From the IMG/VR virus record IMGVR_UViG_2721755811_000005: a DNA stretch of 64,000 nucleotides; one strand, given 5' to 3'. Below the pieces are notes generated by a model. The model saw only the letters and a program-made list of their open reading frames with translations. It did not search any database and was not told where the DNA came from. Both the position numbers and the translations under genes were made by a program. The stretch comes from a virus (taxonomy: Duplodnaviria; Heunggongvirae; Uroviricota; Caudoviricetes). Below are positions 29,979 to 32,568 of this stretch, piece after piece. Each line of letters begins with the position of its first letter. Positions within the stretch are counted from its first letter, which is position 1.

Positions 29979-30874
29979 GCGTCACCGCCTTCCGGCGGCG
30001 CGGTCCAATTGTGAATGGTCAGTTCCACGCGGTCGGTAGCGACGTCAACGCCTGCGCACAGAACCTCGGCCGACCATTTCGCCATGGCAGCATCGATGGC
30101 CTCGTCCAGATCAGCCTCTGCCAGGAGGTTGCCGTCCTTGTCCCGTGGGAGCAGGTTGACAACGCTCTTGTCCATGCGGTTGACCTCGAGGGCCAGGTCC
30201 GATGCGTAGAGAGCCGTGTTGCGCAGCCACAGGTAGCGCTTGGCGTTCTCGGCCTGCACTTCCCGCTCCAGTATCTGGTCCATCTCGACGCAGTCCTGGC
30301 ACTGGCCATGCTGGCGAATGAAGGCCGCTTCGACGCTGTCCCCGGCGAACCAGTGGTTGCAGCGGCAGAAGGCCGGATCGACTGGTTGTTGCTGGCGCTT
30401 CATCTCGGTGACCACCACCTCGACGGCCTCGATCACCGGCACGCCGACGTAGCCGTCCTCGATTGCCACGCGATCAAGCCAGCGCACCAGAGTTTGGAGG
30501 CTTTCGGCCAGTTCGCTGTCGCCCGATCCCAGCGCGGGGTGGGGTCGCTCGCCGGCATTACCCTGTCCGGAAACAGGTTTACCGCCAGGATTGCCCGGCT
30601 CCGAACTCACTCCAGCCCCGCTCAGCGCCGCCAGCGCGATCTGCCGCATGTTCGCCGCCGGCATGTTGTCCTGCTCGGGACAGGGGAACTCGGCGATGGT
30701 GCGGAGCGCCAGGACGGCGCGCTCGAGCGGATGCTCTTCTGCACCCTCGGCGCCGGCCAGGTGTTTCGCTACCGTTTCCCGGATGACGCGCAGCGCGTTC
30801 ATGGCTTGGAGCGAGCTGCCGTCCTGGCCGAGCTTGGCGGTCAGGTCGATCTGTTTAAACAGGGCATGGGTCAT
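29975..30874 (-). CDS. Hypothetical early protein (Cys-rich central segment CRCNHW...CQDC).
   Basis: 299 aa, ATGA overlaps. Confidence 0.5.
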   Translation of the reverse strand: MTHALFKQIDLTAKLGQDGSSLQAMNALRVIRETVAKHLAGAEGAEEHPLERAVLALRTIAEFPCPEQDNMPAANMRQIALAALSGAGVSSEPGNPGGKPVSGQGNAGERPHPALGSGDSELAESLQTLVRWLDRVAIEDGYVGVPVIEAVEVVVTEMKRQQQPVDPAFCRCNHWFAGDSVEAAFIRQHGQCQDCVEMDQILEREVQAENAKRYLWLRNTALYASDLALEVNRMDKSVVNLLPRDKDGNLLAEADLDEAIDAAMAKWSAEVLCAGVDVATDRVELTIHNWTAPPEGGDA

Positions 30875-31206
30875 AGGTCACCCCCTTGCTCGGCGCTGCG
30901 CACTGCCTGGTAGGCGAGGGCGTAGCAAGCCATTTGCACCAGCAGGCTCGAAGCCGCGAGTGCGGGGTGATCCGTGAGGGCCAGGGCCGCCACGTGCAGA
31001 GCGCCGGTAGGGATGGAGAGCCAAGGGCGGGCGAGCATGTTCGCGGCTCCTTGCCCCTTGATGCCGCCGGCGAAGATCAGCAGCCAGCAGAGGACGTTTA
31101 GGGCCGCCGACACATAGAAGGCGAACTGGTGGATGGAGCCATGTCCGAAGTACAGGCACGCGCTGATCAGCAGGCTGACCGCGGTGCTGGTGAGGGCTTG
31201 CTTCAT
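30871..31206 (-). CDS. Small integral membrane protein (3 TM).
   Basis: 111 aa from Met 31206; hydrophobic segments; GGAG RBS. Confidence 0.5.
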   Translation of the reverse strand: MKQALTSTAVSLLISACLYFGHGSIHQFAFYVSAALNVLCWLLIFAGGIKGQGAANMLARPWLSIPTGALHVAALALTDHPALAASSLLVQMACYALAYQAVRSAEQGGDL

Positions 31207-31208
31207 GA

Positions 31209-31439
31209 TCAGCGATCTCCGGCGGCAGCGGTCAAGGCGTCGAGTAGCGCATGCTTTCGGCGCTGGCCATGCAGGTACTCGCGCAGGGCAACGACGATCA
31301 AGGAGTTCATGCTGCGCTCGTCTCGCTTGGCCTCGGCTTCGACCTCGGCCCTCAGGCCGTCCGGCAGACGGACAACGAACTTGTCCATGTCCCGGCTGGT
31401 GCTGGCCGGCAGTTCGGTTACAACGGTTGCTCGTTTCAT
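31209..31439 (-). CDS. Arc/MetJ-type ribbon-helix-helix DNA-binding protein.
   Basis: 76 aa: FVVRLPDGLRAEVEAEAKRDERSMNSLIVVALREYL matches the Arc-like RHH pattern; GGAG RBS. Confidence 0.55.
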   Translation of the reverse strand: MKRATVVTELPASTSRDMDKFVVRLPDGLRAEVEAEAKRDERSMNSLIVVALREYLHGQRRKHALLDALTAAAGDR

Positions 31440-31480
31440 GGGATCTCCAGTGGCGCCATCGCTGGCGCCTGGGCGAGGGG

Positions 31481-32317
31481 CTACTTGCTGATGCCGATGA
31501 AGGGAAGCGGGGAGCCGCTGGCCATGTAGGTGGGCAGCTTTCCGTCCCACTTCTCGACGGCATTGAGGGTCACGACGTCGGGGTTCGAGCGCAGCGCCTG
31601 GGCGCGGATCTCGATCGCCTTCGCGTCGGCGGTGGCCAGGGTCAGCTTCGCGTCCGCCTCCCCTTGGGCCCGAGCGCGTTCCTTGTCGGCTTCTGCCTTG
31701 GCTTGGGCGACCTCGTTACGGCGCTGCTCGGCCATCTGGGTGGCCTGGATCTTCGCGTTCAGGCTCTGCGTAACCTGCGGCGGGAGGACCAGGTCGGATG
31801 CGTAGTAGATGCGCTCGATGTTGATGCCGATGGGCGCCACCTGGTCGCGCACGCGCTTCTCGACGGCCAGCAGCAGGTCCGCCTTACCGGCGCCATAGAC
31901 GCTCTCGACTGGAAGCTTCGAGGCAACATCGTTGAAGGCATCGCGCACCATGTTCCGCAGGAACTTGTTCGTGATTTCGTCGATTCCCGCCCGGTATTTC
32001 TGGAACAGCGTCGTCACCTTGTCGGGGGATACCGAGTAGGTGATGCCGACGGCGCCGCCAACCTTCATGCCCTCAACGGTCTGGAAGCTGATCGCTTCTT
32101 CGCCGCCCCAGGTTTCGGTCTGCGTGAAGGTGGGGAACAGGTAGAGCTCCTCGTTAACTCCTACCCAGTAGCGACCAGTTCCGACCTCGCGCGTCTCCAC
32201 GCCCTTCTCGGAGCCGTAGAGGTTGACGATCACGCCGACGTTGCCGGCAGGCACCTTCGAACAGCCCGCCAGGACGGCGAGCAGGCACAGCATTGCAGCA
32301 GCGGGAATCCGCTTCAT
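31481..32317 (-). CDS. SPFH/band-7 (prohibitin/stomatin-like) lipoprotein.
   Basis: Lipobox LAGC (MKRIPAAAMLCLLAVLAGCS); SPFH core then an Ala/Gln/Glu-rich coiled-coil (EQRRNEVAQAKAEADKERARAQGEADAKL). Confidence 0.7.
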   Translation of the reverse strand: MKRIPAAAMLCLLAVLAGCSKVPAGNVGVIVNLYGSEKGVETREVGTGRYWVGVNEELYLFPTFTQTETWGGEEAISFQTVEGMKVGGAVGITYSVSPDKVTTLFQKYRAGIDEITNKFLRNMVRDAFNDVASKLPVESVYGAGKADLLLAVEKRVRDQVAPIGINIERIYYASDLVLPPQVTQSLNAKIQATQMAEQRRNEVAQAKAEADKERARAQGEADAKLTLATADAKAIEIRAQALRSNPDVVTLNAVEKWDGKLPTYMASGSPLPFIGISK

Positions 32318-32568
32318 TGGTCTTTCTCCTTGCTGGTGGTGGCCGCTTCTTCGCGGCGGGTGTTGGCGAGGTGGATGCCGAGGCAAACCGAGGCGATCAA
32401 CCAGACGCCAGGGATGGCGAATCCCGCGAAGACCAGAACATCGTCGCGACTGCTGACCAGGGCCGGCCCAATGCCGCCCACCAGGGCGACGGACAACCCG
32501 GCATAGGCCAGCAGGGCGTTACAGATCAGGAAGAGCTTCCCGGGCTTGATGAGAGGTTTGTTGTCCAT
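32314..32568 (-). CDS. Small membrane protein (2-3 TM) translationally coupled to the SPFH gene.
   Basis: 84 aa; strong GGAGG RBS; ATGA overlap with the SPFH start. Confidence 0.55.
   Translation of the reverse strand: MDNKPLIKPGKLFLICNALLAYAGLSVALVGGIGPALVSSRDDVLVFAGFAIPGVWLIASVCLGIHLANTRREEAATTSKEKDQ

Follow-up and report, generated by a model that had tools for sequence, protein, structure and literature searches.

Why should a phage encode a lipoprotein of the SPFH (band-7/prohibitin-like) type, and which of the genes around it belong with it? The question is raised by four contiguous, closely spaced genes on the minus strand of IMG/VR virus record IMGVR_UViG_2721755811_000005, analysed here as a stretch of 64,000 nucleotides (the window). 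In the direction of transcription they encode a small membrane protein, the lipoprotein, an Arc-like ribbon-helix-helix protein and a second membrane protein, and the original prediction, made from the letters of the window, had treated all four as one membrane-acting module. The functional unit is instead a two-gene cassette, formed by a membrane hairpin and the SPFH lipoprotein. Judged across the phage and bacterial loci compared here, the pair is a real module, widespread in very different phages and present in some bacterial chromosomes. The overall best explanation, which we hold with moderate confidence, is that of a coupled two-gene cassette, carried as cargo under the control of a cI-type repressor, whose products would form a periplasm-facing membrane cage with a membrane-insulating role. 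Proteins of the SPFH type organise membranes universally, and what they do in bacteria is still ill defined.

The lipoprotein (278 aa; 31481-32317, minus strand) matches PHROG 200 at E=1.2e-91 and the Pfam Band_7/SPFH family (PF01145) over residues 21-210, with 76.8 bits against a cut-off of 23.6 (E=2.8e-21). Its N-terminus, MKRIPAAAMLCLLAVLAGC, is a signal peptide with the lipobox LAGC, which fits the pattern [LVI][ASTVI][GAS]C, and the lipobox cysteine, Cys19, is invariant in an alignment of 17 sequences and nearly invariant in one of 29. Behind it come the SPFH domain, a 65-residue wall helix and, as alignments show, a conserved C-terminal tail of the form W-[DN]-G-x-L-P ... P-F. Because a sequence search against solved structures returned marginal matches alone (E>=0.14), a search by fold was needed. 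The AlphaFold2 monomer model (mean pLDDT 77.8) consists of an alpha/beta SPFH domain followed by one 65-residue helix, residues 180-244, and the top Foldseek matches of this model are full-length chains of prohibitin, erlin, HflK/C, stomatin and flotillin, all at probability 1.0. As modelled, the lipoprotein possesses every part of a cage-forming SPFH protein, namely SPFH domain, long wall helix and conserved tail; the lipobox, the prohibitin-like domain and the coiled-coil that had been read from the sequence all stand, and the fold check supports SPFH. One predicted protein from a Logan contig (P0010, 369 aa) combines Arc (PF03869) and Band_7 and is 100% identical to the SPFH protein of the window over 90% of length, a combination that is probably an artefact of gene calling or rearrangement.

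The gene directly upstream (32314-32568, minus strand) encodes 84 aa, matches PHROG 1130 and 11742, and is predicted to specify an inner-membrane hairpin of two helices (residues 9-39 and 43-83), so that the membrane protein that had been proposed here is retained with two transmembrane (TM) segments and not three. Most lysines and arginines lie at the N-terminus and in the C-terminal tail, with an R-D-D turn between the helices, and because these residues are concentrated at the two ends, in the positive-inside pattern, both termini are predicted to be cytoplasmic and the turn periplasmic. The conserved positions are P35-x-L37-x-S39, at the predicted periplasmic turn, and G49. As had been noted from the sequence, the hairpin TGA and the SPFH ATG overlap as ATGA (32314-32317); by itself, however, the overlap is no marker of the pair, since ATGA or near-ATGA coupling is the rule throughout the whole operon, and TM111, the 111-residue membrane protein encoded last of the four, likewise overlaps its next gene. 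A GGAG-type Shine-Dalgarno sequence precedes each of the four genes. Pfam gave no family for the hairpin at E<=0.1, nor any for 14 homologues, and none of 15 diverse homologues matched NfeD among the families listed; an identity as NfeD or T4 Imm was rejected on this ground, nor can an OB-fold fit in the hairpin, because it has 84 aa and two helices. The NfeD-type partner that the original prediction had expected is thus not what accompanies this SPFH protein, and yet the broader idea behind it, that an SPFH protein works with a small membrane partner, is backed strongly by the conserved adjacency and in-frame fusions described below.

How general is the arrangement? By tblastn, the PHROG 200 lipoprotein occurs in 645 of 50,697 GenBank phage records, many of them virulent, and the surmise that the genes are not a standard component does not survive this count. 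Its virulent carriers include the N4-like phages Pokken and BEU44, Bruynoghevirus TL, GAP31 of the Vequintavirinae, the jumbo phage 7t3, Kayvirus (where the protein is called MbpS), and phiCbK-like and crAss-like phages; temperate carriers include phages of E. coli, Klebsiella and Burkholderia, and the hosts extend from Gram-negatives through Staphylococcus. An SPFH search of 1.84 billion representative proteins gave 350 clusters at E<=1e-30 and 1,143 at E<=1e-10. In diverse loci the position immediately upstream of SPFH is taken, almost every time, by a two-helix open reading frame (ORF) of 49-90 aa, whose stop usually overlaps or abuts the SPFH start (by 1-17 nt where they overlap) and which has in common with the others the turn motif G-x-x-[VIA]-P-x-L-[IV]-S-x-x-[DS] ... 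G-[FL]. A hidden Markov model (HMM) made from 14 such upstream ORFs of diverse loci found a same-strand match upstream of SPFH in 80/80 IMG/VR loci that had been retrieved by their SPFH protein, 79 of them ending at the SPFH start and one (L076) ~900 nt upstream, as well as in 42/42 bacterial-genome loci. In GenBank phages the HMM matches in Pokken, BEU44, 7t3, ST340-VIM1phi10.1 and PPompW, where hairpin and SPFH adjoin, and in GAP31 and phiM6, where one or two small ORFs lie between them; PHROG 1130 is matched by 11 of 15 diverse hairpins. A wide protein search with the hairpin profile returned 73 proteins, all unnamed and none fused, a yield that the word index and the calling of small ORFs probably kept low. 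The annotation of public records has obscured the pair, as the hairpin gene is unannotated in Pokken (L003 2296-2508), PPompW (L004 2762-2950) and vB_E175 (L006 2801-2950), while several GenBank records wrongly name the SPFH gene 'transposase', 'transposase fusion protein' or 'serine protease'.

The pair also occurs in bacterial genomes. DNA related to its E. coli version (query L004 2762-3774) is found in 536 of 5,426 complete E. coli genomes (~10%), in 218 at near full length; 199 of the 618 places at which it lies are plasmid-borne, and these plasmids may be phage-plasmids. The Dyella copy of the pair occupies a conserved chromosomal locus that is not a prophage, beside blaI/blaR1-like sensor genes, hemerythrin and nrdAB, and synteny of this type is common to 21-24 of 41 other genome loci, nearly all of them from Dyella or related Rhodanobacteraceae. 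Its neighbours in diverse phage contigs are genes for replication and nucleotide metabolism, not lysis or structural genes, and an association with lysis cassettes was rejected on that account. The Dyella locus (L113 8142-12035) and several phage contigs (L058, L060 and others) alike have ribonucleotide reductase genes close to the pair, a proximity that may be coincidence.

The limits of the cassette can be read from phage D14L, in which the LuxR-like gene, the gene for a 79-aa protein, Arc and TM111 are all present and hairpin and SPFH are precisely absent. Identity in the D14L alignment continues ~70 nt into the spacer past the 79-aa gene and resumes at the Arc ribosome-binding site. The first ~70 nt of the 99-nt spacer upstream of the pair (32569-32667, minus strand) are accordingly backbone common with D14L, where they precede Arc with no pair between, and the left insertion junction falls ~30 nt before the hairpin ATG; the right junction is the 41-nt spacer between SPFH and Arc (31440-31480, minus strand), which contains a GGCGCC-N6-GGCGCC stem without a U-tract. 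Within the upstream spacer, positions 32611-32620 form a perfect 10-bp palindrome, TTTCGCGAAA, at which the corresponding sequence of D14L differs and which could be a protein-binding site.

Other relatives break the four-gene set in other ways. Phage Ostro keeps the pair and Arc, with a different gene in place of TM111 after Arc, and in many P. aeruginosa prophages SPFH is separated from Arc by 0.5-1.2 kb of other genes, or Arc is missing. Among 86 loci, an Arc homologue occurs in 35, TM111 in 26 and the hairpin, by single-sequence phmmer, in 54. Clustering of the genes downstream of SPFH in diverse loci showed them to be mutually unrelated, essentially never the same one. The quartet as a unit, and with it the expectation that the four genes would recur together in other prophages, was rejected on these grounds; by these comparisons Arc and TM111 are independent backbone genes, TM111 travelling with Arc and not with the pair. 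Individually, the two downstream proteins are much as had been described: the Arc-like protein directly downstream (76 aa; 31209-31439, minus strand) matches PF03869 with 41.1 bits against a gathering score of 20.4 (E=1.6e-10), and TM111 (30871-31206, minus strand; PHROG 7514) is a membrane protein, though its three TM segments become three to four hydrophobic segments, two of the four short.

Two kinds of gene found directly after the pair elsewhere may be recorded here. In many related P. aeruginosa prophages (L010 4859-5836, L037 4859-6004, L032, L040, L043 and L048) the SPFH gene is directly followed by a gene, not in the window, for a repeat protein of 250-380 aa made of tandem octapeptides, GTATAG[YDNH][KWE], whose copy number varies among phages that are otherwise nearly identical. 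In L050-L053 and L056 the sequence directly after the pair encodes what looks by eye like CsrA/RsmA (MLILTRRVGE...); the SPFH proteins of L050-L053 are 87-88% identical to that of the window, as in P. putida-group proteins, and that of L056 is 63% identical.

On which side of which membrane would the SPFH domain lie? In 22 of the 150 best representative clusters the hairpin is in the same polypeptide as SPFH, and most of these fusions read, from N- to C-terminus, hairpin, basic linker, a third hydrophobic segment that often ends in a lipobox, and SPFH. The in-frame arrangement recurs in many unrelated sequences; at one locus in a metagenome-assembled genome a continuous ORF spans hairpin and SPFH at the DNA level, where internal initiation is possible. 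In other SPFH relatives an uncleaved N-terminal TM anchor replaces the lipobox. Aspartate at position +2 after the lipobox cysteine is an established signal for the retention of lipoproteins in the inner membrane of enterobacteria, and it is present in the E. coli PPompW and Klebsiella ST340-VIM1phi10.1 prophage copies, as also in the Burkholderia and Sinorhizobium phage copies; the +2 residue in other enterobacterial phage copies is Tyr (BEU44) or Glu (GAP31). Because of the fusions, the TM-anchored relatives and the Asp+2 of the two enterobacterial prophage copies, the SPFH domain is best placed at the inner membrane on its periplasmic side, which is the arrangement of HflK/C and where these sequence features suggest it would sit; the best structural matches, prohibitin, erlin and HflK/C, are likewise formers of cages outside the cytoplasm. 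The charge pattern of the hairpin, read by the positive-inside rule, agrees with a topology in which SPFH faces out.

The surroundings of the pair bear on when it would be made. A gene for a cI-type repressor, with helix-turn-helix and S24 peptidase (PF00717, 6e-20), occupies 33414-34262 on the minus strand, and directly after its stop codon stands an intrinsic-terminator-like hairpin with a T-run (33385-33406, minus strand). Beyond this comes an AT-rich gap (33294-33384, minus strand), the probable leftward operator and promoter (OL/PL), with operator-like sites at 33322-33335 and 33352-33365. The motif AGCNNNGCTWWTAT occurs four times in the 64-kb window, where chance would give 1.35 occurrences, two of the four in 33322-33365 and two in the cI-cro gap (34300-34345), and repeats D12, D18 and I18 supply sites common to the gap after cI and the cI-cro gap; the two are probably OL and OR (the rightward operator) of the cI-type repressor. 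This is the expected signature of OL/PL, under which the LuxR-like gene, the 79-aa gene, the pair, Arc, TM111 and the genes beyond would form a repressor-controlled early-left operon. The terminator-like hairpin would keep the cI transcript apart from that operon, and because this hairpin and the operator-bearing gap both precede it, the pair is probably PL-type cargo and repressed in the lysogen. The leftward early position that had been assigned to the four minus-strand genes is therefore upheld, and two other proposals are not. The first was that the ~100-bp gap upstream of the pair holds a promoter of its own: a consensus promoter scan, crude enough that it could miss an internal promoter, found no sigma-70-like site in the 99 nt of 32569-32667, and since the gap is backbone sequence as well this candidate was rejected. 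The second was an analogy with rexA and rexB next to cI. Lambda rexAB shares the transcript of cI in the lysogen; in the window cI is followed by a terminator-like hairpin, and two genes and the operator-bearing gap come before the pair is reached. The 79-aa protein encoded directly upstream of the pair (32668-32907, minus strand; PHROG 8933) carries the annotation 'putative anti-CRISPR protein' in D14L, for which Pfam and PADLOC scans gave no support.

Taken together, these observations suggest the following model. After export, the lipoprotein would be held by its lipid anchor at the inner membrane, on the periplasmic face where HflK/C also lies, and would there oligomerise into a ring or cage over a patch of the membrane, as other SPFH proteins do. 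The hairpins would supply the transmembrane fence that the processed lipoprotein lacks, the conserved P-x-L-[IV]-S turn contacting the SPFH domain, such that hairpin and lipoprotein together would be functionally a split version of a TM-anchored subunit of the HflK/C type. The cassette would be an accessory insertion, carried as cargo by the early-left operon that cI represses and placed there between the 79-aa gene and Arc, and the pair would be made early after infection or induction and not constitutively in the lysogen. Its role might then be to insulate or stabilise part of the inner membrane, along with the proteins of that part, during phage development, in the service of host takeover or membrane homeostasis. 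Such a role would be useful to virulent and temperate phages alike and would involve no Rex-like suicide or exclusion switch. What the comparison shows is the conserved pairing, the fusions, the fold, the mosaic distribution and the place in the operon; oligomerisation, the hairpin-SPFH contact and the membrane location are all steps that we infer, and the biological payoff, for which a membrane-insulating role in host takeover seems most likely, is the weakest of the steps. We favour it because the carriers are both virulent and temperate, the neighbours belong to replication and nucleotide metabolism, Dyella has a chromosomal counterpart and no defence model matches.

Several observations weigh against this model. 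The P. aeruginosa copy has Ser-Lys-Val after the cysteine, which is no recognised Pseudomonas inner-membrane retention signal, so the protein could go to the outer membrane; since this sorting signal is uninformative, the inner-membrane position of the window's own protein would follow only from that of its relatives. An HflK/C-like lipoprotein of a Pasteurella prophage has been reported in outer-membrane vesicles (PMC9872710). The hairpin is not a universal partner, since another small membrane protein takes its place upstream of SPFH in Bruynoghevirus TL, in Kayvirus and in phiCbK-like phages. The patchy presence of the cassette in close relatives and its variable, hot-spot location are typical of exclusion and defence genes too, and an internal promoter could have escaped so crude a scan as the one applied to the upstream gap.

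The first alternative is that the pair is a membrane-acting superinfection-exclusion or abortive-infection device, as the original prediction had proposed. Such a device would protect the lysogen or the infected cell, for instance by blocking DNA entry at the inner membrane, in the manner of T4 Imm, P22 SieA and HK97 gp15, or by collapsing the membrane potential, in the manner of RexAB. The cassette is indeed accessory, patchy among near-identical phages and lodged in a variable hot-spot, and it is predicted to face the periplasm at the inner membrane, where incoming DNA crosses. Its presence in virulent phages is no bar to such a role, because these too encode early exclusion proteins, of which T4 Imm and Sp and T5 Llp are established examples, and one Vi01-like phage lists its SPFH gene beside an annotated superinfection-exclusion gene. 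Nevertheless, no PADLOC defence model was matched at a meaningful score: PADLOC-DB v2 gave nothing for SPFH, Arc or TM111 and, for the hairpin, only a 4TM 'Effector' model at E=0.032, and a known anti-phage defence system was rejected for the four genes on this basis (a mad1 match, E=0.0011, falls on the LuxR-like protein upstream, outside the quartet). The Pfam scans showed no Imm or Rex family. Lying behind the cI terminator and the operator-bearing gap, with no promoter of its own detected, the pair is probably silent in the lysogen; a device specific to the lysogen is further argued against by the occurrence of the family in virulent phages and by the conserved Dyella locus, a non-prophage chromosomal copy syntenic in 21-24 of the 41 other genome loci. 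Finally, hosts that extend from Gram-negatives to Staphylococcus would call for a generic target. An exclusion or abortive-infection role is not favoured, and we consider it unlikely, though it is a rival that still carries weight.

It is tempting to speculate about a variant in which protection and the cage coexist: a hitherto unrecognised two-component membrane-cage system, distinct from SPFH-NfeD, with which phages belonging to many families would wall off, from the periplasmic side, a patch of the inner membrane early in infection to block competing phage DNA or to blunt host defences that attack the membrane, with the Dyella copy serving against envelope stress. This we regard as a speculation with a small chance of being right, and the membrane-insulating role is the one we keep as preferred.

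Slimmer still are the chances of a mimic of HflK/C that captures or modulates host FtsH and so stabilises regulators of the cII/cIII type, Xis, LpxC or sigma-32, biasing the lysis-lysogeny decision or host physiology. The lipoprotein shares the fold of HflK/C, which encloses FtsH, and is predicted on the same side of the membrane; the pair lies in an early-left operon, where lambda has its FtsH inhibitor cIII; and there are weak sequence matches to the HflC and HflK models. These matches, however, are of 16.9 bits against an NCBIfam equivalog cut-off of 134.4 for HflC and 16.3 bits against 159.4 for HflK, and the Foldseek identity to HflK/C chains is 15-19%, so that the support from sequence ends at the shared fold. 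A role of this kind has been proposed in genome papers (PMC8540360, PMC10269572, PMC4936722), but the family is common in strictly virulent phages, which have no lysogeny decision to bias (PMC8540360).

A lipoprotein of lysogenic conversion, sorted to the outer membrane or to vesicles and acting on the environment or an animal host, is very improbable. The precedent is PM0222 of Pasteurella multocida, which is found in outer-membrane vesicles, stimulates TLR1/2 and attenuates virulence when deleted (PMC9872710), and the P. aeruginosa copy, with Ser-Lys-Val after its cysteine, has no recognised inner-membrane retention signal to speak against such sorting. The alpha-helical membrane partner, the in-frame fusions and the TM-anchored relatives nevertheless link the domain with the inner membrane, virulent phages and environmental bacteria also have members of the family, and the pair is probably repressed in the lysogen; the likeness of PM0222 to the window's subfamily is, moreover, one of description.

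The weakest reading, one Arc-regulated operon unit in which the ribbon-helix-helix protein controls the membrane proteins, has on its side the close spacing of the four contiguous genes and a 54-aa ORF between hairpin and SPFH in GAP31 (L087 2278-2442) with a ribbon-helix-helix-like pattern, judged by eye, but is contradicted by the comparative data, in that Arc and TM111 stand without the pair in D14L, the pair stands without Arc or TM111, or with unrelated genes between, in many loci, and the downstream genes are unrelated across diverse loci, and we give it next to no credence. No general association of the pair with ribbon-helix-helix proteins was seen, and the GAP31 ORF is best described as a curious echo of the Arc of the window.

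As for the phage itself, the 64-kb window is a 42,303-bp genome continued past its own end: positions i and i+42,303 match over all 21,697 comparable bases, and the genes of 1-21,697 reappear at 42,304-64,000, as is seen in the ORF list too. The phage belongs to the F10/PAN70/Ostro mosaic group and is a temperate siphophage that infects Pseudomonas aeruginosa. Around the cassette, 2.15 kb are 97-98% identical in DNA to phages 5400, D14B, U2, PAN70, Hali and others, and a wider 21 kb is ~94-96% identical to Ostro and PAN70 across half of its length. What the window holds is accessory cargo of an ordinary kind, already sequenced in F10/PAN70-like phages of P. aeruginosa. The Rfam scan gave nothing in the region of the genes but a DUF3800-VII RNA motif at 27229-27316 (minus strand; 73.8 bits against a gathering score of 36.2, E=5e-14), which is unrelated to the cassette.

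The significance for the window itself is modest, and the useful result is the generalised hairpin and SPFH pair. The phage-borne SPFH gene has repeatedly been flagged as unexplained in genome papers, yet it is common, as the 645 phage records and the ~10% of complete E. coli genomes attest. Those papers offer speculation on HflK/C-like control of lysogeny or leave the role unclear (PMC8540360, PMC10269572, PMC4936722, PMC13239085, PMC7150955), two of them calling it so (PMC13239085, PMC8540360), and a full-text search for the function of the phage gene turned up, beyond such speculation, the Pasteurella PM0222 study alone. A paper on N4 lysis contains nothing on the SPFH gene, and the main text of a 2026 survey of P. 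aeruginosa SPFH proteins makes no mention of phages or prophages; in the literature retrieved, no paper describes the hairpin partnership or hairpin-SPFH fusions. With its dedicated two-helix partner, its frequent fusions and an SPFH domain predicted to face the periplasm, the pair offers a model open to direct test, and a minimal system of two proteins in which to study the assembly and contents of an SPFH cage; the comparison also corrects annotation, both of hairpin genes missing from GenBank records and of SPFH genes mislabelled in them.

How does the pair compare with systems already known? Among small phage envelope proteins, lambda RexAB, T4 Imm, P22 SieA and T5 Llp resemble it as accessories to the lytic programme, and Llp is also a lipoprotein, but they have no sequence or domain kinship with the pair, and unlike rexAB the pair of the window lies behind the cI terminator in the early-left operon. 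PM0222 is likewise a prophage-borne SPFH protein and a lipoprotein-like TLR1/2 agonist, although it is described as a vesicle-borne virulence factor and the likeness is one of description only (PMC9872710). Another group is that of the annotated phage SPFH proteins, namely the PHROG 200 'lipoprotein', of which the window's protein is a member, the 'prohibitin family protein' of Ostro, and Kayvirus MbpS with MbpV. In Kayvirus, too, a coupled small membrane protein precedes SPFH (PMC7150955), and in Kayvirus ISP the two genes form a unit with its own annotated promoter and terminator; the partner there, however, is a 1-TM protein unrelated to the hairpin.

With the E. coli proteins HflK and HflC the lipoprotein has in common the SPFH domain, the long coiled-coil wall helix, the C-terminal cap region and the predicted periplasmic face of the inner membrane, and HflK/C is among its best structural matches, at a Foldseek probability of 1.0. 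It differs in its lipobox cysteine anchor, which stands in place of an N-terminal TM helix, in its 15-19% identity and scores far under the family cut-offs, and in gene content, as there is one SPFH gene with a 2-TM hairpin where HflK/C has two SPFH paralogues; the tie to FtsH is here one of fold only. The SPFH-NfeD operons (QmcA-YbbJ, YqiK-YqiJ, PH1511-PH1510 and FloA-NfeD) are also two-gene systems in which a small membrane protein is paired with SPFH. QmcA-type SPFH domains face the cytoplasm; the SPFH protein of the window, by contrast, is predicted to be exported, and its hairpin has no NfeD or OB-fold domain and no Pfam match. In the SPFH-NfeD systems the partner is thought to help assembly (PMC13086221). 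If the loci compared here are a guide, a dedicated and often fused partner that is not NfeD would define a periplasm-facing SPFH pair across phages and some bacteria, and it is in this generalisation that the usefulness of the comparison would lie.

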